Shown: positions 19,051 to 30,643 of the stretch, piece after piece
Layout of the letters: each line of letters begins with the position of its first letter
Position numbering within the stretch: position 1 is the stretch's first letter
NCBI GenBank assembly: GCA_049967855.1
Contig: JBMFRX010000014.1
Coordinates: forward strand, 1 to 30,643
Direction: 5' to 3'
Length of the DNA: 30,643 nucleotides
From: Caldisericaceae bacterium
Lineage (GTDB): Bacteria; Caldisericota; Caldisericia; Caldisericales; Caldisericaceae
Notes under the pieces: generated by a model
Seen by the model: only the letters and a program-made list of their open reading frames with translations
Told to the model about the DNA's origin: nothing
The model's database searches: none
Position numbers and translations under genes: made by a program

Positions 19051-19834
19051 CTTATCCGTATCAGACATTGTAACTATTTTCAAATGCCCGATGCAAGTCT
19101 ACCTCAAAAAGAAAGGCGTTAACGCACATTTCAGGTACTCTTTCAAATACAACATAGGAACACTTGTGCATGAGGTGCTTTCGCAGTTTGTAAGCGAAGT
19201 CAGAGCCCCAAACCTGTTTGGAGTAAATGTTGATTTTGGAAACGAGGATGAATTATACAAATTTATAGAAAAAAGTTTATATACAGCACTTATCTCAAAA
19301 ATGGAACAAAAGTCATACTCTAAATCTTATTTTGATATTGCCTGGGAACATTTAAAGGTTATGGCAAACTATTTTGCCAATCTCATAACCAATAACAATT
19401 CTTCCTTCAGCGAGATTTTCCTGTTTGCAGAAGAGCCTTTCTCATTCAATATAGACGAATCCATAATTATACAGGGAAGGTTTGACCTGCTTATTAGCGA
19501 TAATGACCAGCTTAAAATAATCGACTACAAGACAAAGAAAGAGGACTTTGAAAATGACATCGTGCAAGTTTCGCTCTACGCAAAAGGAATGGAGATTAAA
19601 ACAGGCAAATCAATAGAGCCAATGCTTCTTTACACAAGCAGAGACGGACTGAGAGAAATTAGATTCACAAAAGATGAAGTAGACCTCACTTACAGGCAAA
19701 TTGAGAAAGAATTAGCGGACTTTAAAAAGATGATTGAAGGTAAAAAAGAGCCACACAAAACCTATGATAGAAGCCTTTGCAGAAGATGTTCCGCAGCAAG
19801 TCTACCAATTTGCAAACAGGATTTGGAAGATTAA
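19016..19834 (+). CDS. RecB/Cas4/AddB-like PD-(D/E)XK nuclease with predicted 4Fe-4S ligands
   Basis: CPMQ, GTLVH, E...QGRFD...IIDYKT, QVSLY, C-terminal CRRC-x7-C. Confidence 0.88.
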   Translation: MELSGFQKEYLSLSVSDIVTIFKCPMQVYLKKKGVNAHFRYSFKYNIGTLVHEVLSQFVSEVRAPNLFGVNVDFGNEDELYKFIEKSLYTALISKMEQKSYSKSYFDIAWEHLKVMANYFANLITNNNSSFSEIFLFAEEPFSFNIDESIIIQGRFDLLISDNDQLKIIDYKTKKEDFENDIVQVSLYAKGMEIKTGKSIEPMLLYTSRDGLREIRFTKDEVDLTYRQIEKELADFKKMIEGKKEPHKTYDRSLCRRCSAASLPICKQDLED

Positions 19835-20412
19835 AAACTACTGCGCCACAAACCAATTACTTTGCCAACAATCTGAGTCTCTCTGGTTATGTATATTTCT
19901 CTGTAGACATCGTTCATTGGTACAAGATAAAAACCATCCCTTCTCTTTTCCAGTTTTTTAACCGTGGATTCATCGCCAATTATTGCAACGCAAATATCTC
20001 CGTCGCGTACCTGTGAGTCAGGGTCCACAACCACAAGATCGCCATTCTGAATGTGGCCATCGATCATACTATCCCCTTTAACGCGTAGCAAGAAAGCATG
20101 AGGATGGGCTTCTGGGTTTACAGGCAAAGGCAAGAATCCTTCAATTTCCTCAACCGCAACGGTTGGAGCACCTGCATGCACGGCGCCAAGAAGAGGGAAC
20201 TTATTGAGCCGCGGCGCAACTACTCTGAAAGACCGTGCTTTCCCTTCTTTCTTGAGAAATCCTTTTTTCTCTAGAGTGGCAATATGAGTGTACACCGTGG
20301 AAACGGAATGCAATCCAAAATGATCCCTTATTTCACGGTATGTGGGAAAGTGACCGTCCATTTCCTCCTGCGATATGTAATCGAGAATTTCTTTTTGCTT
20401 CACTGTCAACAT
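19831..20412 (-). CDS. lexA: SOS repressor LexA
   Basis: PTYREI wHTH, HAG cleavage site, GDSM Ser, TVKK Lys; ATG 20412 follows a GAGGTG RBS. Confidence 0.95.
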   Translation of the reverse strand: MLTVKQKEILDYISQEEMDGHFPTYREIRDHFGLHSVSTVYTHIATLEKKGFLKKEGKARSFRVVAPRLNKFPLLGAVHAGAPTVAVEEIEGFLPLPVNPEAHPHAFLLRVKGDSMIDGHIQNGDLVVVDPDSQVRDGDICVAIIGDESTVKKLEKRRDGFYLVPMNDVYREIYITRETQIVGKVIGLWRSSF

Positions 20413-20430
20413 TTTAATCACCTCTACACT

Positions 20431-20458
20431 ATTATACGAACATATGTTTATTATGCAA
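20431..20458 (-). promoter_or_regulatory. lexA promoter
   Basis: TTGCAT, 16 nt, TATAAT on the minus strand. Confidence 0.7.
20437..20450. promoter_or_regulatory. SOS box (GAAC-N4-GTTC type)
   Basis: CGAACATATGTTTA lies between the -35 and -10 boxes of lexA. Confidence 0.85.
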
Positions 20459-21655: not shown

Positions 21656-23275
21656 CTACAATCGCAATATGATCTCTTTCGCTTCTGGGATCTTTTGGGA
21701 GCTCATACTTAATTCATCCACTCCAAGCTCCACGAGCTTTGGAATCGCATTAGAGTCTCCTGCAAGTTCTCCGCATATACCTGTCCATTTACCCTTTGCG
21801 TGTGATGCATCAACTGTCATTTTGATAAGTTTAAGAACAGCAGGATGAAGAGGCTGATATAGATAGTTTAGGTTCTCATTTGTTCTGTCCGCTGCAAAAG
21901 TATACTGCGTCAAATCGTTAGTCCCAATACTAAAAAAATCAACAAGGCTAGCAAGCTCTTCCGCGTTAAGCGCAGCAGAGGGAATTTCTACCATAATGCC
22001 AACTTTAAGGCTCTCGTCGTACTCAATATTTTCATTTTTCAATTCTTCCTTTGCCTCATCTAAAATAGTATTTGCTTCTATAATTTCCTCTTTTAAAGCA
22101 ATCATTGGATACATTATGAGAGCCTTGCCATAAGTACTAGCCCTTAGAATGGCACGCAATTGTGTTTTAAATAGATCCTTCCTTATTAGGCACAACCTGA
22201 TTGCTCTTACGCCAAGAAAGGGATTTAGCTCTTTTTCAAGATGTAAATACGGAATTTGCTTATCCCCACCTATGTCAAGAGTTCTTATAATTATTGGTTT
22301 GCCTCTGAATCTTTCCAATACAACCCTGTATGCTTCAAATTGCTCGTCTTCTGTTGGAGGGGTTTGCCTATCAAGAAATAAAAATTCTGTTCTGTACAGC
22401 CCAACTCCATCTGCTCCCATTTCAATGGCTTTATCGATATCTTTTGGAGAGCCTATATTTGCAGCAACTTCAATCCTTTTGCCACTTTTTGTGATTGCAG
22501 AGCGCGTTGCCCCTTCTCTAAGTTTGAGGGCTTCTTTCTCAAGCTCTGACTTCTTTGTTAAGTAATCACTCTTCACATCATCTGTAGGCTCTACAATTAT
22601 TGTCCCATTGTTTCCGTCAATAATAAGCTCTTGTTTATTGCCTATATTAATTAGCGCATCCTTCACTCCAACTACCGCTGGTATACCAAGGGCTTCGGCT
22701 ATAATTGCAGTATGGGAGGTAACCCCTCCTTTTTCCGTTACAAACCCTGAAACATTTTTTCTATCAAGGCTTGCGGTATCAGAAGGGGTTAGGTCATTTG
22801 CTATAACAATAGAATGCTCTGGCAGAAGAGCAAGGCTGACTTTTTTTATACCAAGAACATTTCTTATTAATCTATTAGAAACGTCTCTTATATCCTGCGC
22901 TCTTTCTCTAAAGTATTCGCTAGACATTTGCTCCATGGTCCTGGCACTTTCCTCAAAAGCAACACTTATTGAGTACGGAAGATTAAAACCCTCCTTTAGT
23001 CTTGCCTTAACTATTTCAATGATGCTTGGGTCGTCAAGAAACAGCAAATGTGCTTGGAAGATTTCTGCTTCTTCAGGATTGCTCTCTTTTAAAGTATTGT
23101 AAAGGTAATTTATCTCGGCTTTTGTTTCTTCTATTGCCTTATTGAAAAGAGCTATTTTATCGTCATAAGACACTTCGTCCTTTTCCGCTTCAATTTTAAT
23201 TTCACTGCTCTCATAAATAAAAGCATTTCCCAAGGCAATCCCTTTCGATACGGCAATTCCTTCAAGTTTTTTCAT
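21656..23275 (-). CDS. ptsI: PTS enzyme I
   Basis: GGVTSHTAI, GLYRTEF, RTLDIGGDK, FSIGTNDL, GICGE. Confidence 0.97.
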   Translation of the reverse strand: MKKLEGIAVSKGIALGNAFIYESSEIKIEAEKDEVSYDDKIALFNKAIEETKAEINYLYNTLKESNPEEAEIFQAHLLFLDDPSIIEIVKARLKEGFNLPYSISVAFEESARTMEQMSSEYFRERAQDIRDVSNRLIRNVLGIKKVSLALLPEHSIVIANDLTPSDTASLDRKNVSGFVTEKGGVTSHTAIIAEALGIPAVVGVKDALINIGNKQELIIDGNNGTIIVEPTDDVKSDYLTKKSELEKEALKLREGATRSAITKSGKRIEVAANIGSPKDIDKAIEMGADGVGLYRTEFLFLDRQTPPTEDEQFEAYRVVLERFRGKPIIIRTLDIGGDKQIPYLHLEKELNPFLGVRAIRLCLIRKDLFKTQLRAILRASTYGKALIMYPMIALKEEIIEANTILDEAKEELKNENIEYDESLKVGIMVEIPSAALNAEELASLVDFFSIGTNDLTQYTFAADRTNENLNYLYQPLHPAVLKLIKMTVDASHAKGKWTGICGELAGDSNAIPKLVELGVDELSMSSQKIPEAKEIILRL

Positions 23276-23541
23276 TCTGCATCACCGAAATTCTCATTAA
23301 CAAGAGTTTCTATAGACTTCATTGCTTCTTGCTCATCAACGCCCTCTGTCTCAACCGTAATAACACAACCCTTTTCTGCTCCTAGGGAAAGAACGCCAAT
23401 AATACTCTTTGCAGAAACAACTCTTCCATCTTTTGCAATGGTTATATTTGACTTAAATCTATTTGCAGTTTGCACAAGCACGGCTGCAGGCCGTGCATGC
23501 AAACCAACTTTATTTTGAATGACAAATTCTCGTTGCTCCAT
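23272..23541 (-). CDS. ptsH: Phosphocarrier HPr
   Basis: GLHARPAA (His15), AKSIIGV (Ser46). Confidence 0.97.
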   Translation of the reverse strand: MEQREFVIQNKVGLHARPAAVLVQTANRFKSNITIAKDGRVVSAKSIIGVLSLGAEKGCVITVETEGVDEQEAMKSIETLVNENFGDAE

Positions 23542-23646
23542 AACTCACCTCACTATTTCAAAATTGACCCAAAGGATTTGTAACTTTAAACAAAGAGACT
23601 TGCAAGAACTTGGACTATTAGCTAAGAAAGAATTTTGCAACAACAA

Positions 23647-24108
23647 TTAACTCACTTTGCTCTCCAGAGAATTAAAAACATTCTTCTCTAAAAACAACTT
23701 AATCTTGCCCAAATCCTTATTCTTGATTAATTCCAAAAAATCAGCGTTTGCAAAATTTTCTGTAAGTTCTGATAAAAACTTAAGGTACTTTTGTGGATCC
23801 TTTATCACAAATAGGAAGATAAGATCCACGCTTATGCTTTTTGAAGTGTCGTCAATTCTAAAGAAGTCTATTTCATTCTTCGGGACTCCGATTACAAACA
23901 CATCGTCATTCGCAAATTCTGTGTCCGTATGTGGTATAGCAACGCTCACAGAATTTGAGAGCTCCAACCCAGTTGGATGGTTTCGTTCTCTTTCTAAAAG
24001 CGAATCTTTGTATAACTGCTTTACATATCCAAGTTCTTGCAATCTATCCGATAAGAAAGTCAAAGCCTCCTCTCTATCACCCTTCACCTCGAACGCTAGA
24101 AATTTCAC
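23647..24108 (-). CDS. PTS IIA component (galactitol/fructose-mannitol fold)
   Basis: ERERNHPTGL, VAIPHTD. Confidence 0.9.
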   Translation of the reverse strand: MKFLAFEVKGDREEALTFLSDRLQELGYVKQLYKDSLLERERNHPTGLELSNSVSVAIPHTDTEFANDDVFVIGVPKNEIDFFRIDDTSKSISVDLIFLFVIKDPQKYLKFLSELTENFANADFLELIKNKDLGKIKLFLEKNVFNSLESKVS

Positions 24109-24109
24109 C

Positions 24110-24421
24110 TTACTCTCCTATCTTTAAAGAATCCTTGACTTTCTGAACGAAGTCTTTAACTCCAATCATTGTCATAAGCGGCAAGCCCGACAAAACAGGC
24201 AAGTCGTCTGGCAAGCCCTCCTTCGAGAAGCCACCTGCAGTAATTATAACAAGTTCTGGTTTTCGGTTGCTTACATTGCCTGCAACCTCTGAAACTCTCA
24301 TCGTTACTATTTCTACGTCTATTTTTTCTTTTTCCAACAACTCGCCTAGTCTGTATTTTACAAGGTTCGCAGAAGCAGCAGCAGACCCACAAGCCACATA
24401 AATCAGGTGTTTGTTTGCCAT
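24110..24421 (-). CDS. PTS IIB component, galactitol-like
   Basis: IYVACGSAAAS phospho-Cys loop; ATG 24421 preferred over TTG 24433. Confidence 0.85.
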   Translation of the reverse strand: MANKHLIYVACGSAAASANLVKYRLGELLEKEKIDVEIVTMRVSEVAGNVSNRKPELVIITAGGFSKEGLPDDLPVLSGLPLMTMIGVKDFVQKVKDSLKIGE

Positions 24422-24444
24422 ATTATCTTTCAATCCTCCTAGTC

Positions 24445-25077
24445 TTACAGTTTTTTGACATATTTGTTTATTATATCCTGAGTTTGCTGAGCGGTAAACT
24501 CGGGCATTCCACCAAAATTCTTTCCTGCAACGACCATTTTCGAAGCCTCCTCAAGGACCTCAATCCTTGAAAACGCTTGCATAAGAGAATTTCCAATACT
24601 GAAAGCGCCATGATTCTTAAGCAGCGCGAGATTATGATTTGTTAAGGCATTTGCAAGAGCTTCAGCAGTCTTTGCTCCAGGCTCAGTAAAATCAACTACG
24701 GCAAGCTCTCCAATCATTACAACGAATTCAGGAGTTATTCCTCTTGGTACGAATCCTGCGGAGACAAGACCAACTGCAGTTGAAGGGTGAGCATGAACTA
24801 CAGCTGAGATATCATTTCGCCTGTTATAGAGACTTATGTGAACAATCGTCTCGCTTGACGGCACTCCATTGTCTAAAACTGTCCCGTCTAGTCCTACCTT
24901 GACGATGTCTTCAGGCTTCACGTTCATTTTATCAAGGCCTGTTGGCGTGATTAAGATATAATTTCCACTCCTTGAAATAACACTTACATTACCACCAACA
25001 CTTGAAACTAAGTCCCTCGTGTATAACCTATTTATCATTCCGCTTACTTCTTCACGAAGCAATGTTTCTTCTAACAT
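24445..25077 (-). CDS. Class II aldolase/adducin family (FucA-like)
   Basis: GGNVS, ITPTG, PSSE, VVHAHP, LKNHG; ATG 25077 with AAGGAGG. Confidence 0.9.
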   Translation of the reverse strand: MLEETLLREEVSGMINRLYTRDLVSSVGGNVSVISRSGNYILITPTGLDKMNVKPEDIVKVGLDGTVLDNGVPSSETIVHISLYNRRNDISAVVHAHPSTAVGLVSAGFVPRGITPEFVVMIGELAVVDFTEPGAKTAEALANALTNHNLALLKNHGAFSIGNSLMQAFSRIEVLEEASKMVVAGKNFGGMPEFTAQQTQDIINKYVKKL

Positions 25078-25103
25078 ACTAACCTCCTTATGAATTTTAG
25101 GGT

Positions 25104-25134
25104 CCCTCTCCCAAGGCAAATTCTCAGGAGAGGG
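25104..25134 (-). other. Intercistronic stem-loop in the PTS operon
   Basis: On the minus strand CCCTCTCCTGAG pairs with CTTGGGAGAGGG (12 bp, two G-U pairs); no U-tract on that strand. Confidence 0.55.
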
Positions 25135-25143
25135 TTTTAAACA

Positions 25144-25503
25144 TTACCTAAACCTTTCAACCTTCAGAGTATCAGCAGCAAGCTTACCCTGGATAACTTT
25201 TATTTCTGGCATAGCAGACTTTATAAGAACTCCTATGTTCGTGAGCCATGAGAAACAATAAGTCAACACAACTTCCCCTTTAGCACTGGAAATTTCAACG
25301 TTAACTTTTCTATAGAGCAGGCTCCAATTAACCAATCCAACATAAGTAAAAATCTTACTGCCTTTCTCAAATACAAGTTTCTCGTCATTCTGCGCAAGCA
25401 ATTTATAGCCCAAAGAGACAAAAGTTTCCTTAGCTATGCCACTTATATCATTACTTACTGGCTTATGCAAATTTAAGGATACTATGAAATTCCTACTTTG
25501 CAT
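25144..25503 (-). CDS. Hypothetical protein in the PTS operon
   Basis: Start overlaps the IIC stop codon by 1 nt (TAATG); co-oriented. Confidence 0.7.
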   Translation of the reverse strand: MQSRNFIVSLNLHKPVSNDISGIAKETFVSLGYKLLAQNDEKLVFEKGSKIFTYVGLVNWSLLYRKVNVEISSAKGEVVLTYCFSWLTNIGVLIKSAMPEIKVIQGKLAADTLKVERFR

Positions 25504-26897
25504 TAGCTCTTACGCTCTTCCTCTAATTTTGCTGCAATCTTTACTGGCTGATCCTTTGCATAGAACCATGCTAAGAAGTAGATTATTCCAATTACAATCG
25601 GAATAACAGCTAATCCAGGCTTTCCTGCCGCAAAAGAAACTATTGGAAGAATCAAGATGTAAGGCAAAATGTGTGAACCAGCATCAAGAGAAGAAACCAA
25701 AACTATTCCAGCTGGGATTGCATAACTGATTGTCTTTGCAGCCTCCGTAAGAGGAACGGCAAACGCGTTTGTTATATAGACTATGAGCACAACGCTTATG
25801 AGTCCGTTCAGAATTGTCTTAATAACGTTTCCTCTTGAAGCAGCTGCCGCGAACATAACAAAGACTGGGATAATTGCAAGATCTGCAAGAGGCAGTATTT
25901 TATTACCCGGGATAAATGCCAGTAACAATACCACAGGCAGTAAGAGATAACCAACGAAAATTGAGGTTGGGTTTGATAAACCTATTGGACCCGCATCTAT
26001 ACCAATATAGATTTCTCTATTAGAAAATCTTTTGTTGTTGGAGAAAAATTCGCCAATTCCATTCACAATAGGCATTAAGCCTTCCATTAATATTCCAATC
26101 ATTCTGCCCTGTAGTAGCATAAGAGCTGACAAATAAACACCTGTTTTAAAAACATCAATTACAGATTGTCTACCTAAAATGCCTAAGATTAAACCGACAT
26201 AAAAACCGAGCATAATGGGTTCACCAAAAACTCCAAACTTTTTTGTAAGCCCTTCTGGATCTGCTTTTATATTATCCAAACCCTTTATCCTAGAAAATAC
26301 AAGTTTCTCTGCAGCTAAGTTTATAGGGGCCCAGTTAACTGATTCCGTATGCGGCAGAGACGTTCCTGGTATACCAAAATATGTCTGAGTGAGAGGCGCA
26401 GTCCAATCAGCAAGCTTCAGAATAATAATCTCGGTAATTATGGAAAGCGCATAAGCTAAAACTAGGTTCTTTGTCCACATATACACCATGACAGCAACAA
26501 AAGCCCAGTGCCAGTAGTTCCAAACATCTGCATCAAAGGTTTTTGTCCAGTTCAACAATAACATTGCCAAATTCACCAGAAATGCAATTGGAATAATCGC
26601 AGCTGAAAGAGGAACACCCCAGGTTATTGCAGAAGTTAGGGGCCAACCCACATCCAGTCCTTCCAAGCTTAAACCAAAACTCTTAGCCATCGTGCTTACT
26701 ACTGGGCCAACAACACCAAAAACAGCCCCCAAAACAGCATTGATTCCAATGAAAGCTACTCCAACCGTCAAAGCAGCTCTTAAACTCGTACCAATCTTTT
26801 GCCTAAAGATGAGTGCAAGAACAAACAATATGATTGGCATCATAATCGCTGGACCCAAATTTAGAACTTGGTTTACTGCACTTTTAACAAATTCCAT
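25503..26897 (-). CDS. PTS IIC component, galactitol (GatC) family
   Basis: DVGWP, DVWNYWH, LKLADW, GEP, YIGID, PGNKILPLADL. Confidence 0.92.
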   Translation of the reverse strand: MEFVKSAVNQVLNLGPAIMMPIILFVLALIFRQKIGTSLRAALTVGVAFIGINAVLGAVFGVVGPVVSTMAKSFGLSLEGLDVGWPLTSAITWGVPLSAAIIPIAFLVNLAMLLLNWTKTFDADVWNYWHWAFVAVMVYMWTKNLVLAYALSIITEIIILKLADWTAPLTQTYFGIPGTSLPHTESVNWAPINLAAEKLVFSRIKGLDNIKADPEGLTKKFGVFGEPIMLGFYVGLILGILGRQSVIDVFKTGVYLSALMLLQGRMIGILMEGLMPIVNGIGEFFSNNKRFSNREIYIGIDAGPIGLSNPTSIFVGYLLLPVVLLLAFIPGNKILPLADLAIIPVFVMFAAAASRGNVIKTILNGLISVVLIVYITNAFAVPLTEAAKTISYAIPAGIVLVSSLDAGSHILPYILILPIVSFAAGKPGLAVIPIVIGIIYFLAWFYAKDQPVKIAAKLEEERKS

Positions 26898-27047
26898 GAC
26901 TAACCTCCTTTGGTTTTAATTTTTTTTGCAGCCTTTTCCAATTTTCAATGTTCCTTCACCACCTCTTTAGCCTTCGGCTAGAATCTCAGTTAAAACAAAA
27001 ACCTTACCTTACGCAAAATTCGATAGTCATAGAATCAATTTTTTAAT

Positions 27048-27076
27048 AGAATAATAGTAACTTCTTTCAATGTCAA
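27048..27076 (-). promoter_or_regulatory. Putative PTS operon promoter
   Basis: TTGACA, 17 nt, TATTCT on the minus strand. Confidence 0.55.
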
Positions 27077-27130
27077 TCAGTTATTTACTCTTAAAAAGAA
27101 TGAATTGTGGTATTTTTTTTACTTTTAGTT

Positions 27131-29104
27131 TTATGATTTCCCGAGTGCCTTCTCAATCTCTTGTGAGGAGCTAAATTCAAGCAATTCACTCGCTATTTTC
27201 TTGACTCTTATTTTCTCCAACAATCCGTATAGATCTTTGGAGTCTTCTTCTGCTCCTGTTAGGACAGGCATAATTATTATGTCCACGTCCAAGCTATTTT
27301 CTGGATTCCTCATTTCTTTGAAACTAACCGGGCTTTTTAGAGTTGCAAGTGCAAAGCCTTTTTTAACTGTAAATTCCGGCCCTGCGTGTGGTATCGCAAT
27401 TGGTATATCTGCGTTAATACCTGTAGGAAATTTGCTCTCTCTTGCCAAAACAGCTTCTACTAAACCATCTTTTGCAAACCCAGCTTTCACAAGAGCATCA
27501 GCTAGTATGCTAATTACTTCTCTTGATGAATTAACACTAATTTGCGGGAAAATTAGCCTCTCATCAAACATACCTTCTTCTGCTGTATCATTTATAAACG
27601 CTACTTTTCCTATTTTCAGTATCTCTTTAATTAATTTTTTATCTTCTGTTCTTAAAAATGGAGAAACAACAACATGAGGAATCTTTACCCCTGATAGCGG
27701 CATTGTGGAGATTATAAGATCTACTTTTTGAGTGAAATTTCCTTCTTCAAGCTCTTTAATCGACCCAACCTGGACAATTTCAATTTCAGGGATTTCATTG
27801 GTCAACTTATAATATAATAGTCTTGAGGTGGCAATGCCCATAGGGCAAATTACTGCAACTTTTTTCCTGACAGGCTGCTTCAGTGCTTCAAGCGATGCTG
27901 CAATATACATTGCGATATAGCCCTCCTCTTCATTGGGTACTTCTACCTGAAACTTCTCCCCAATTATTCTTGCAGCCCTTTCTGCGATTGTATAGGCAAT
28001 GGGATATTCTTTTCTAATCGTATCTATTGCGGGGTTGTCTATTTTAGCGCCCATTTTGATTTTTCCAATTGTAGATTCAAGATGATGGGCTAACATCGAA
28101 ATGAACTCACTCTCTTTGTTTACTGTTAAACCTAATAATTCATTGGATAGCTGCACTATTTCCTCTGCAACTTGTTTGAATTTCGGGGCTACTGTAAAAA
28201 CCTTTGTACCTTCTACTTCCTGAGTTTTTGCCCCTATAAATTTCAAGGCAAGATATGAAACCTCGCTATCAGTAAACTTCAATTGGAACACTTCTTCAAG
28301 TTTATTAATACCATTCTTTACTAAAAGAGATAACTTATTAGAGAAGACGTAATTTATATGCTTAGAATCTAAAGTTACTTTATGGTTATTAGCTATTCGC
28401 CTAACCGATATGGCAATAGCAAGGGCTATAATTAGTTTATCCTCATCTGTAAATTTTGTTTTAGCTTCCGTTTGAATTTCATTTATGAAGTTTTCGATTG
28501 TATGGAAATTTGTATCCTTGAAAATCCCAAGGAGGTTATGCTTTACAAGTCCTTTTGCAAATTCTGAAGCTACAATTTGAAACTCAAATCCTAGAAAATT
28601 TCTTATCGATTCAATTATGGCATCTCTTATATTTTCTTCTCTTCCTTCAATTCGGTACCCAGAGCCGGATTTGCCGTAAAGTCTTATTTCTCTTTTTGAG
28701 AGCCACTCTTTAACTTCATTGATATATTCAACTACAGTAGGTCTTGAGATATCAAGCAATTCGCAAATGTCTTCAATCGTTGGAATTTTTTCCTTCGAAA
28801 GGAAAATCTCTGTCGTGTACCAAATTTTTCCATTTCTGTCGAGAAGCTTGCTAGAAATAGAATTGAGTTTTTCCCTAAGGTTTTCCTTGCTCTGGGAGGA
28901 GCCTTGTAACATAATCCCTATTCTTGGCTTGGCAACAAGTGATAAACAATTGTCACGTGATAACTCCTTAAGTTGCGAAATATCTTTTCTGAATGTGTTA
29001 ACGTTAAGGTTCAGCTCATCACAGAGCTTACTCGCTGAAACAGGATAATTCAGTTCCAGAAGGTATAGCAAGATTTTAATGTGCCTCCCTCTAATTTCAA
29101 CCAT
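27131..29104 (-). CDS. MtlR/LicR-type PRD-containing transcriptional activator (HTH-Mga-PRD-PRD-EIIB-EIIA)
   Basis: Two HTH regions, PRD repeats, VICPMGIATS (EIIB), IAIPHA (EIIA). Confidence 0.9.
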   Translation of the reverse strand: MVEIRGRHIKILLYLLELNYPVSASKLCDELNLNVNTFRKDISQLKELSRDNCLSLVAKPRIGIMLQGSSQSKENLREKLNSISSKLLDRNGKIWYTTEIFLSKEKIPTIEDICELLDISRPTVVEYINEVKEWLSKREIRLYGKSGSGYRIEGREENIRDAIIESIRNFLGFEFQIVASEFAKGLVKHNLLGIFKDTNFHTIENFINEIQTEAKTKFTDEDKLIIALAIAISVRRIANNHKVTLDSKHINYVFSNKLSLLVKNGINKLEEVFQLKFTDSEVSYLALKFIGAKTQEVEGTKVFTVAPKFKQVAEEIVQLSNELLGLTVNKESEFISMLAHHLESTIGKIKMGAKIDNPAIDTIRKEYPIAYTIAERAARIIGEKFQVEVPNEEEGYIAMYIAASLEALKQPVRKKVAVICPMGIATSRLLYYKLTNEIPEIEIVQVGSIKELEEGNFTQKVDLIISTMPLSGVKIPHVVVSPFLRTEDKKLIKEILKIGKVAFINDTAEEGMFDERLIFPQISVNSSREVISILADALVKAGFAKDGLVEAVLARESKFPTGINADIPIAIPHAGPEFTVKKGFALATLKSPVSFKEMRNPENSLDVDIIIMPVLTGAEEDSKDLYGLLEKIRVKKIASELLEFSSSQEIEKALGKS

Positions 29105-29112
29105 CAAAAATA

Positions 29113-29121: not shown

Positions 29122-29304
29122 TATTTGATAAATTCTTCTATAAGTCTTATGAGTTAAAAATCTCTTTCCTTTTCGCGTCTTTTCCCTCCTGAAAAACTTT
29201 TTTTACATTTTCGCTTGCCTAGTTTGGATTTTCTTTCGCCCCCCTCTGCATATTTATATATAGGGGGAGCGCTCCCTAAAATTATAACACTTGGAGGTGT
29301 TAAG

Positions 29305-29505
29305 ATGACTGTAACAGAGAATCCAGGCAGGCTGCAAGTTATCTTCACAGTATCTGCCACGCAGAAAAGAACAGAGAGCATCACTAATGTGAAGCCCACT
29401 GCCACAGACCAGGACCTTTACGACATAGGTTCTGCGATTGCAAATTTGCTGAATGATACGCTTTCAGACATTAGACGCTCTTCTTCAAAGAGCTATGCTG
29501 CATAA
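29305..29505 (+). CDS. DUF1659-like small protein (66 aa)
   Basis: GGAGGTG RBS then ATG 29305; NVKPTATDQDLYDIGSAIANL resembles DUF1659; paired with a DUF2922-like gene. Confidence 0.75.
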   Translation: MTVTENPGRLQVIFTVSATQKRTESITNVKPTATDQDLYDIGSAIANLLNDTLSDIRRSSSKSYAA

Positions 29506-29518
29506 GGAGGTGTAAGAT

Positions 29519-29746
29519 ATGGCTACTACAACCACCAAAGTATTGAGGCTCGTATTCGGAGCTGCTGACGGGTCAACACACGCAATGGAGTTTTCCAACC
29601 CAAAGGACACCATTACAGAGACGCAGGTTCACGACCTTATGCAGATGTTTATCACAAAGAACATTGTTAGCACGAAGGGCGGAGACCTCACCACAATCAA
29701 AGACGGCGGAATAGTTGAGAGGACATTCACTGATTTAGTACCATAA
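29519..29746 (+). CDS. DUF2922-like small protein (75 aa)
   Basis: AAGGAGGTG RBS; LRLVF..ADG, NPKD, M..FI.KNI....GDL..I....IVERT pattern. Confidence 0.8.
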   Translation: MATTTTKVLRLVFGAADGSTHAMEFSNPKDTITETQVHDLMQMFITKNIVSTKGGDLTTIKDGGIVERTFTDLVP

Positions 29747-29774
29747 TTGTTGCCTCCTAAACTCTTCCATATAC

Positions 29775-29803
29775 GGGAGCCCTCAGAGGCTCCCACTCTC
29801 TTT
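29775..29803 (+). terminator. GC-rich hairpin with a weak pyrimidine tail (possible leaky terminator)
   Basis: GGGAGCC-ctcaga-GGCTCCC then ACTCTCTTT. Confidence 0.5.
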
Positions 29804-29820
29804 ATAAAGGATGGTGCAAA

Positions 29821-30189
29821 ATGAAAAAAGTTTATTTAATCATCATATTGTTTGCAGTTAGTTTTCTCATTACTGCGCCTGTTGTATGGGCAAATGCTGG
29901 CGATTCAACGATTGCACTTTCACCTGAATGGCTTGCGGGGCTTGTTGGAGTGATTGCGCCTCTCATAGTGCATTGGATTGTTGGGGCAAACCTTTCACGA
30001 AAATGGAAAAGCATATTTGCGATTCTTGTTTCTTCTGTTATTGGATTTGCTTCGGCGTTCCTTTCGGGACAATTCAATACAGTTTCGGTGCTTCAATCAA
30101 TTGCGGTGGCTTTCTCTATATCGCAGGTATTCTACGACCAGTTTTTCAAAGACTTATTCAATAAGGACAAAGAGGACTTCTTTGAATGA
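29821..30189 (+). CDS. Holin-like membrane protein with a signal-peptide-like N-terminus
   Basis: MKK, hydrophobic stretch, A-x-A; about 3 further TM segments; charged C-terminal tail; upstream of an amidase. Confidence 0.55.
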   Translation: MKKVYLIIILFAVSFLITAPVVWANAGDSTIALSPEWLAGLVGVIAPLIVHWIVGANLSRKWKSIFAILVSSVIGFASAFLSGQFNTVSVLQSIAVAFSISQVFYDQFFKDLFNKDKEDFFE

Positions 30190-30338
30190 GTATTGAGGAG
30201 ATATTCAAAAGCATTGCTGATTTTGGCTTTCCGATTGTTGTTGCAATATACCTCTTAATTGTATTCGGAGCAAAGATTGACAAGCTCGCTACTGCAGTTG
30301 ACAGGCTTTCTCATTTCATAGAGGGGTTAAAGCGATGA
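30186..30338 (+). CDS. YvrJ-family small membrane protein (50 aa; not in the ORF track)
   Basis: Manual translation MSIEEIFKSIADFGFPIVVAIYLLIVFGAKIDKLATAVDRLSHFIEGLKR; GFP..VA.YLL motif; ATGA overlaps at both ends. Confidence 0.8.
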   Translation: MSIEEIFKSIADFGFPIVVAIYLLIVFGAKIDKLATAVDRLSHFIEGLKR

Positions 30339-30643
30339 GAAAGATACAATACATTGTCCTGCACCACTCCGCAACGGATTATCAAGCAAACAAAGAGGAT
30401 ATTGACGGAGCAGTGATTGCAAATTCTATCTGTAAAAATCAATCCGAGAAGTGGATAAAACAGTATCCAGATTACAAATGCGATTACCATTTCATCATAG
30501 GACACACTGGCAAAGTATTCAACGGTCAACCAGTGGAGCAACCTTCTTGGCACTGCACGAACTACCAGGCAAACCTTGTAAGTGTGGGAGTTTGTTTCTT
30601 GGGAAACTTTGAGAATATTGAAATGCCCACCGGACAGTTTAAT
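30335..30643 (+). CDS. N-acetylmuramoyl-L-alanine amidase (Amidase_2/PGRP-like), cut off by the window end; not in the ORF track
   Basis: Manual translation MRKIQYIVLHHSAT...DYHFIIG..G...WHC...N..SVGVCFLGNF; no signal peptide. Confidence 0.85.
   Translation, partial: MRKIQYIVLHHSATDYQANKEDIDGAVIANSICKNQSEKWIKQYPDYKCDYHFIIGHTGKVFNGQPVEQPSWHCTNYQANLVSVGVCFLGNFENIEMPTGQFN

Follow-up and report, generated by a model that had tools for sequence, protein, structure and literature searches.

A DUF1659/DUF2922 gene pair ahead of a holin–amidase cassette in Caldisericaceae: a possible make-and-release system under DNA-damage control

What are two very small proteins doing at the head of an apparent phage lysis cassette, in a genome in which none of the five phage terminase, head and tail families tried is found? 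The question is raised by a five-gene unit at the end of a 30,643-nucleotide stretch of DNA (the window) from a Caldisericaceae bacterium; the window is contig C14 of the source genome, G000 (1.3 Mb, 42 contigs), and other G and L numbers denote comparison genomes and loci. All five genes lie on the forward strand: A (29305–29505) encodes a 66-residue DUF1659/SroA-family protein (Pfam E=4.8e-13); B (29519–29746), a paralog of A, a 75-residue DUF2922/SroB-family protein (Pfam E=5.2e-19); H (29821–30189), a holin-like membrane protein of 122 residues; Y (30186–30338), a 50-residue YvrJ-family protein with a single transmembrane segment (Pfam E=1.1e-10); and the last gene (30335–30643), a signal-less Amidase_2 endolysin (Amidase_2 E=2.7e-12; amidase in PHROGs). 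The amidase gene is cut at codon 103 because the window is a complete contig, and readable DNA stops there. The answer that we favor, with reserve, is a domesticated make-and-release system, induced by DNA damage and derived from the circuitry of temperate phages but lacking their head and tail genes, in which an A/B heterodimer would be the product. The architecture of the module and its SOS wiring are very probable; that A and B are what is released is a distinctly more tentative proposal.

The original prediction, made from the letters of this stretch, had described five co-oriented genes, and the reading frames at 29305–30643 are indeed present, with Pfam confirming DUF1659, DUF2922, YvrJ and Amidase_2. 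Its holin-like third gene stands in part: H has three hydrophobic segments, but its family match is sub-threshold (Hol118, E=0.036). The near-perfect ribosome-binding sites (RBSs) ascribed to the first two genes are there (GGAGGTG before A, AGGAGGTG before B), as are the ATGA overlaps that join the last three (30186–30189 and 30335–30338); the amidase lacks a hydrophobic N-terminus (maximum 19-residue hydropathy 0.92), as expected of a protein without a signal. Overlooked were a hairpin (29775–29794) and an upstream leader (29232–29267), the SroA/SroB identity of the pair, its probable SOS control, and phage-type replication genes elsewhere in the genome.

A and B belong to the families of Staphylococcus aureus SroA and SroB: the tandem of DUF1659 followed by DUF2922, with strong RBSs, is the sroAB arrangement and is found in the window. 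According to the S. aureus report, sroAB is induced 1000-fold by SigS and, in a SigS-dependent manner, by methyl methanesulfonate, and SroA interacts with SroB in a two-hybrid assay (10.1101/2022.10.19.512975). A and B are paralogous (hhalign E=1.2e-5), and both are predicted to fold as β-β-α-β (AF2 pLDDT 89–90; 89.3 for A, 89.8 for B). A multimer prediction, suggested at the outset and now run as a 2:2 job, scores 0.80 for A–B versus 0.00 for the best of three controls, a mark reached by 116 of 157 solved pairs and 2 of 215 mismatched ones, which is a rough guide for this 2:2 job with its own alignments; the runs agree on 100% of contacts, with a partner pLDDT of 91. A and B are thus predicted to bind as a heterodimer, through their helices and second strands, while the long C-terminal strands lie outside the interface. 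Fold searches with the two monomers returned nothing significant (no Foldseek match at E<=0.001) and no virion or fiber protein, and the A and B profiles matched no sequence of a solved structure. In the ESM Atlas, B leads to DUF2922 clusters only and A to one low-score unnamed cluster; no A–B fusion or longer form was found, which is weak evidence. The B family comprises 1741 clusters at 50% identity.

If A and B are made to be released, are they made in excess over the proteins that would open the cell? The strongest Shine-Dalgarno pairing in the loci is that of A and B, with median energies of −16.1 and −14.7 kcal/mol, compared with −11.3 for Y, −11.4 for the amidase and −9.3 for other genes. 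The GC-rich hairpin at 29775–29794 of the forward strand, between the A/B bicistron and the lysis genes, is terminator-like or mRNA-stabilizing; of 32 loci, 29 have a hairpin with z<-2 and dG<=-15 between B and the holin-type gene that follows, versus 13 of 60 control gaps. RBS strength and hairpin would both favor high A/B output and low lysis-gene output, and the abundance originally proposed for the two small proteins finds support at this level.

What would turn the operon on? The forward-strand leader at 29232–29267, a T/C-rich block followed by a CATA-W-W block, is a putative split-sigma promoter. It is identical at 35 of 36 positions to G000:C22:31–66 (blastn E=1e-9), and that second copy precedes, at a contig start, a Phage_rep_O gene and a DnaB-type helicase gene (G000:C22:78–2271, L004). 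Members of the family share the motif in front of A, and it is also found before rep-O genes in G007 and G028; with a position weight matrix built on nine other genomes, the two sites score highest in G000 (31.0 each; next 25.7). The lower-scoring G000 sites, mostly in or near host genes, were rejected as regulon members. Across genera the motif is degenerate, and among 21 genomes the exact 25-nt leader pattern occurs in G000 only. G007 has near-identical leaders before its A operon (L035, upstream of 14031) and before two rep-O loci (L165:9420 and L164:9440), with the likeness longest between L035 and L165; a C-terminal amidase fragment follows one of these rep-O loci (L165:7482–7754), hinting at a once contiguous element. 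Replication genes also accompany the module itself: L043 reads rep, DnaC-like loader, amidase, Hjc-like gene, H, A, B, Y; L122 has A, B, HTH, DnaD-like, G39P and ComK-like genes; and L149 has A, B, Y, two sigmas, DnaD-like and DnaB.

A candidate for the factor that reads the leader is encoded on contig C1 (G000:C1:78611–81383; L163:6611–9383), next to genes for tRNA-Leu/Cys/Gly: here an HTH+S24 (CI-type) repressor gene is divergent from an operon of two small genes, a second rep-O, a 152-residue gene and a pair of 81- and 74-residue sigma2-like and sigma4-like genes; no integrase is present in the 20 kb read. The pair is recognized by weak matches (G000 sigma4, Pfam E=1.2e-3 and TIGR02937 E=3.8e-6; G000 sigma2 has no match of its own, its orthologs match Sigma70_r2 at E=6e-4 and 1e-3), by which the two adjacent small genes have the layout of SigO-RsoA. 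The sigma2 gene is present in 15 of 19 other genomes of the family, usually at one fixed chromosomal site, and in two genomes of family f5 (L053 and L209) the split sigma stands directly before A. Intact B and sigma2 occur together in 14 genomes and are both missing from three, with B alone in one and sigma2 alone, itself broken, in two (p=0.03, overstated by kinship). Because of this co-loss, the synteny and the SigS and SigO-RsoA precedents, we infer that the split sigma fires the leader before A and its copy. Family f3 gives no sigma2 match; its module lies instead behind a divergent HTH+S24 repressor, an arrangement seen in L040, L048 and L054. Upstream of sigma2 in L208, L212, L215, L216, L223 and L224 are recurrent short palindromes of the type ACTATAGT or GCTATAGT, possibly a second operator at the split-sigma promoter.

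The split sigma, in turn, appears to be wired to DNA damage. A GAAC-N4-GTTY box, which is the LexA Cheo-box consensus (PMC4234289), precedes lexA, the gene for DNA polymerase IV and the C1 split-sigma operon. The host lexA, the presumptive top of the control cascade, lies in the window (19831–20412, reverse strand; TIGR00498, 158.6 bits with a cut-off of 110.95), and the box upstream of it (20437–20450) defines the SOS motif of this genome. At the C1 operon the box sits between the −35 and −10 elements of the promoter, and the locus has two LexA boxes; none is found directly before A in G000. Another, near-perfect box (G000:C1:81466) stands before a 102-residue gene right behind the split sigma (L163:9495–9803), which has no Pfam or PHROG match. 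LexA boxes accompany 5 of 15 split-sigma loci versus 19 of 1198 G000 genes; in Bacillota, 11 of the 20 ComK-like genes and 5 of the 43 copies of A have one, versus 5 of 517 other genes. The regulatory, replicative and lytic roles of a PBSX-type circuit (damage-sensing repressor, replication initiator, late activator, lysis genes) are filled in G000, spread over three contigs. The proposed DNA-damage control of a DUF1659/DUF2922 module is new here: no paper linking the two families to lysis genes or LexA was found in a literature search without subscription journals and supplements.

Is the unit a peculiarity of one contig? Of the 84 genomes of the class, 57 carry DUF2922, as do 69 of the 121 Bacillota genomes sampled, usually in a single copy; it is also matched in Thermotoga maritima, the sole one among 14 control genomes; a scan of GTDB contigs with one protein gave four loci only. 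Among the 30 best class loci, the window included, A is found in 29, YvrJ in 15, an amidase in 14 and H in five. Within the family an amidase follows in 13 of the 14 loci with readable downstream DNA (contig ends cut 2 of 16), the exception being G001, in which B is interrupted by a stop codon. Host genes, different from genus to genus, flank the module in 20 wide class loci, and in the window the unit is, as originally noted, divergent from a PRD/phosphotransferase system (PTS)-EIIA transcription regulator (27131–29107, reverse strand; Pfam), a host flank outside the module. The description of the unit as stand-alone is thereby borne out in relatives with readable flanks, including G008, whose genome is a single contig. 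In 40 wide Bacillota loci, A is found within 3 kb in all 40, YvrJ in 29, a ComK-like gene in 18, a lysin in 14 and a sigma gene in six. Plasmids carry the module too: those of Geobacillus, Parageobacillus and Peribacillus have a ComK-like gene, A, B, YvrJ, an M15 peptidase or Amidase_3 and an integrase, and one from Clostridium sporogenes has sigma, integrase, excisionase, A, B and Amidase_3. Selection appears to maintain all five genes, with ratios of nonsynonymous to synonymous substitution (dN/dS) of 0.02–0.31 over four genome pairs (a simple pairwise estimate, one pair being near saturation).

H carries a hydrophobic, signal-peptide-like N-terminal extension of 30 residues (29821–29910) that is absent from four close homologs and may represent a second start or an added anchor; its homologs occur in 4 other loci of the 30 and in L043. 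Y matches PHROG 4898, a holin family (E=1.3e-4; E=1.3e-8 for a Bacillota member), and its slot is occupied by Phage_holin_4_1 and Phage_holin_1 genes in L140 and L146; Y is, on these matches, a probable holin. Full-length relatives of the truncated amidase have 198–218 residues and keep the HH, DYH, RH/KH and CPG motifs; the C-terminal metal ligands, visible in these relatives only, are presumably those assigned by analogy with T7 lysozyme, and the amidase in L036 bears a C-terminal SLH domain. Thus, a signal-less hydrolase with metal-binding motifs adjoins a small holin-family membrane protein, as in holin–endolysin pairs, and would be expected to lyse the cell. The lysin slot is taken by Amidase_2, Amidase_3 or an M15 peptidase, three unrelated folds, and the holin slot by other phage holins; therefore, the same slots are filled non-orthologously. 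Judged by gene content, holins, lysins and regulators are swapped between lineages and the A/B pair is constant, and the linkage of the pair to lysis genes, which the original prediction proposed to measure, is conserved over two phyla.

How would these parts work together? DNA damage would remove LexA, and probably also the local CI-type repressor, from the C1 operon, whose boxes and genes are plain in the sequence and which would supply a rep-O protein and the two-gene split sigma. The latter would fire the leaders before A-B-H-Y-amidase and before the second rep-O/DnaB operon; A and B would be made in bulk as a heterodimer, as the predicted binding, the RBSs and the hairpin suggest; the holin and the signal-less amidase, in lesser amount, would open the envelope, as their families do elsewhere; and the heterodimer would leave the cell as the product. 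What form that product takes is a matter for guarded guesses. A soluble antagonistic or signaling factor is not very likely, and a polymer or particle is less likely than that. More doubtful still is one specific version, in which free edge strands let the heterodimer polymerize, after DNA damage, into a capsid-less, virus-derived filament or tube that is released by holin and lysin as a filamentous gene transfer agent or weapon; in some lineages the polymer would form around DNA that the co-regulated replication proteins (rep-O/DnaB or DnaD/DnaC/G39P) produce, and A/B would be an unrecognized virion-protein fold in the morphogenesis slot of a phage-like circuit common in Bacillota and Caldisericota.

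Could the unit be nothing more than a decaying prophage or the remnant of a selfish element, with the rest hidden by the contig break? CI, cro-like, rep-O and sigma genes do lie beside tRNA genes on C1, G007 has scattered rep-O copies and amidase fragments, A–B is multi-copy in some Clostridia and lies beside integrases on plasmids, and DNA beyond the amidase is unreadable in this contig. PHROGs 21372 and 20302 match the DUF1659/DUF2922 families, and therefore some phage or prophage records carry them. However, the five structural families tried (Terminase_6N, TerL_ATPase, portal, capsid and tape-measure; PF03237, PF03354, PF04860, PF05065 and PF10145) have no match in G000 (42 contigs), G007, the single-contig G008 or G027, and none occurs among 129 neighboring proteins scanned with Pfam (62 + 67), a partial scan, the Bacillota loci alone having 300 unlabeled ORFs within 5 kb. 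A tblastn search of 50,697 phage records gave no match, nor did two IMG/VR pattern scans, which are insensitive. Because the five structural families are not found in the genome, dN/dS points to purifying selection on all five genes, and DUF2922 is so widely present, mostly in single copy, the unit is, as far as sequences tell, not a decaying prophage; this explanation is largely refuted and very improbable. G002 carries a separate prophage, and L170 (G003:C88:15000–34505) is an ordinary-looking one, with ORFs that by eye read as terminase, portal, capsid and tape-measure-like, and is unlinked to the A/B module of that genome. Improbable too, if less so, is non-lytic wall remodeling or export tied to competence or repair, in which the holin would export the amidase for local wall opening under a ComK-like or sigma activator and A/B would assist in taking up DNA or in secretion. 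Clostridia have documented cases of holins that export without lysis (PMC9527704), and a ComK-like gene, a neighbor in 18 of the 40 Bacillota loci as well as on plasmids of the Geobacillus group, would fit; yet ComK is matched only weakly (PF06338, E from about 1e-5 to 0.02, 2 of 15 passing 1e-4), no competence gene is found among the neighbors scanned, and the rep-O, DnaD, DnaC, G39P and DnaB neighbors indicate phage-type circuitry.

The rival to be taken most seriously, one of real though lesser probability, accepts the SOS switch and denies the product: lysis would serve suicide or the release of extracellular DNA, the holin and amidase would merely kill damaged cells, nothing specific would be delivered, and A/B would act internally as a regulatory or shut-off pair (SroA being the active member and SroB antagonizing it) aimed at, for example, RNA polymerase or mRNA decay. 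Several observations favor it or count against a released heterodimer. The SroA/SroB experiments speak for a role within the cell: they describe sroAB as a bicistron whose effects are intracellular, SroA stabilizing sigS mRNA (10.1101/2022.10.19.512975), and SroA overexpression represses nitrate respiration and nucleotide synthesis (PMC13192611). The top folds, none of them significant, are small intracellular phage proteins, T7 Gp2 (Z 5.3, root-mean-square deviation 2.2, 51 aligned), p56 (Z 4.6) and phi29 p6 (Z 4.5); the proteins of both families are mildly acidic, with mean net charges of −1.7 and −2.3; and contacts named in the 2:2 model are A1-B1 and A2-B2 only, A-A and B-B being outside the scoring. 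A and B are retained where lysis genes are absent (L041, L042, L049–L052 and the Clostridium botulinum plasmid pTO08), and only 14 of the 40 Bacillota loci, which were drawn from 38 of the 69 positive genomes and picked for long contigs, have a lysin inside 3 kb; the 14 are a lower bound, the seed profiles having missed an M15-type gene in L122. The circuit has gaps as well: LexA boxes are absent from the nearest 200 nt at 10 of the 15 split-sigma loci, Fisher tests overstate because the genomes are related, the rep-O query matched 6 of 84 class genomes (the replication genes are therefore optional), and G007, 99% complete, has no Peptidase_S24 match, and therefore no LexA found there, although both the module and two pairs of split sigma genes are retained. 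Against the internal regulator stand the S. aureus effects themselves, which stem from overexpression; the RBSs of A and B, the strongest in the loci; and the retention of the pair under a split sigma, a one-chain sigma, ComK-like and CI-type regulators or a direct LexA box, which would be odd for a dedicated feedback regulator.

Each part of the proposed make-and-release system has already been named, and its logic resembles known SOS make-and-lyse systems. By analogy, the layout would be that of an SOS-induced phage-derived element or of a sigma–holin–amidase–cargo locus, with A/B in the structural or cargo position. Like PBSX, which also has replication, holin and amidase genes, it joins phage functions to the SOS response. 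PBSX is an SOS-dependent chromosomal element with an XRE repressor and a sigma-like late activator (PMC8347963); unlike the module, it encodes terminase, portal, head and tail, families not found here among the five tried, and two 7–8 kDa paralogs are the sole conserved product of the module. By that negative the module also differs from tailed prophages, tailocins and head-type gene transfer agents. The clostridial UviA-UviB-amidase-Bcn5 and TcdR-TcdE loci likewise combine a dedicated sigma, a small single-transmembrane holin, a signal-less amidase and a signal-less cargo, described as a large bacteriocin or toxin with a holin of the BhlA or TcdE family (PMC9527704). Here, by contrast, the cargo would be small, a non-hydrophobic heterodimer of no known fold, and neither a Bcn5-type bacteriocin nor a BhlA-family holin is present among the module genes and neighbors scanned. 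Bacillus subtilis yvrJ belongs to the SigO-RsoA split-sigma regulon (PMC8103513, PMC12370630), and that system shares with the module a two-gene sigma with separate sigma2 and sigma4 parts and a YvrJ gene in the regulon (PMC8103513, PMC12370630, 10.64898/2026.10.01.756105); it is described as acid-induced and driving oxdC, whereas here the sigma lies behind LexA boxes with rep-O. S. aureus SigS-SroA/SroB comes closest, with the same families in the same order, strong RBSs, and alternative-sigma and DNA-damage control; the interaction seen there by two-hybrid is here predicted only (10.1101/2022.10.19.512975). In the passages cited, SroA/SroB is treated as a staphylococcal regulator (10.1101/2022.10.19.512975, PMC13192611), with YvrJ unmentioned in the former and lysis, phage and structure unmentioned in the latter. 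Unlike in S. aureus, holins and an amidase follow the pair here, and the sigma is split and LexA-boxed.

Taken together, the comparison suggests a widespread, little-studied system for bulk production and release, one that DNA damage appears to activate across many unrelated bacteria. More than half of the sampled Bacillota genomes and two thirds of those from Caldisericia carry DUF2922, yet the families are little studied; SroA/SroB of S. aureus, YvrJ of B. subtilis and the LexA-boxed ComK-like genes of Clostridia would be joined as parts of one damage-induced lysis-cassette system. With an inducing condition, a promoter and a candidate product supplied, the function is directly testable. Release of the pair as a polymer would reveal a new kind of phage-derived particle; failing that, there would still be a widespread circuit for programmed lysis or export, one that alters how sroAB should be understood.

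A few lineage-specific arrangements and neighbors complete the picture. In Desulfosporosinus-type multi-copy genomes (L060, L061, L071, L075, L076, L142, L143), A–B adjoins a gene of about 290 residues, which we take to be DUF3102-like, suggesting a mobile unit there. In family f5 (L041:6613–12024, L042:6724–15837, L052:3981–13085), giant proteins of 1800–3000 residues are encoded directly after A–B, with Cu_amine_oxidN1 at the C-terminus in L042 and a tRNA-Pro gene upstream of A; these surface proteins were set aside as cargo because the Cu_amine_oxidN1 domains are of host type and the arrangement is confined to one lineage. In the window, the PRD regulator closes a PTS cluster (21656–29107) of ordinary host genes: enzyme I, EIIA, EIIB-like, class II aldolase, galactitol-type EIIC and the regulator itself.

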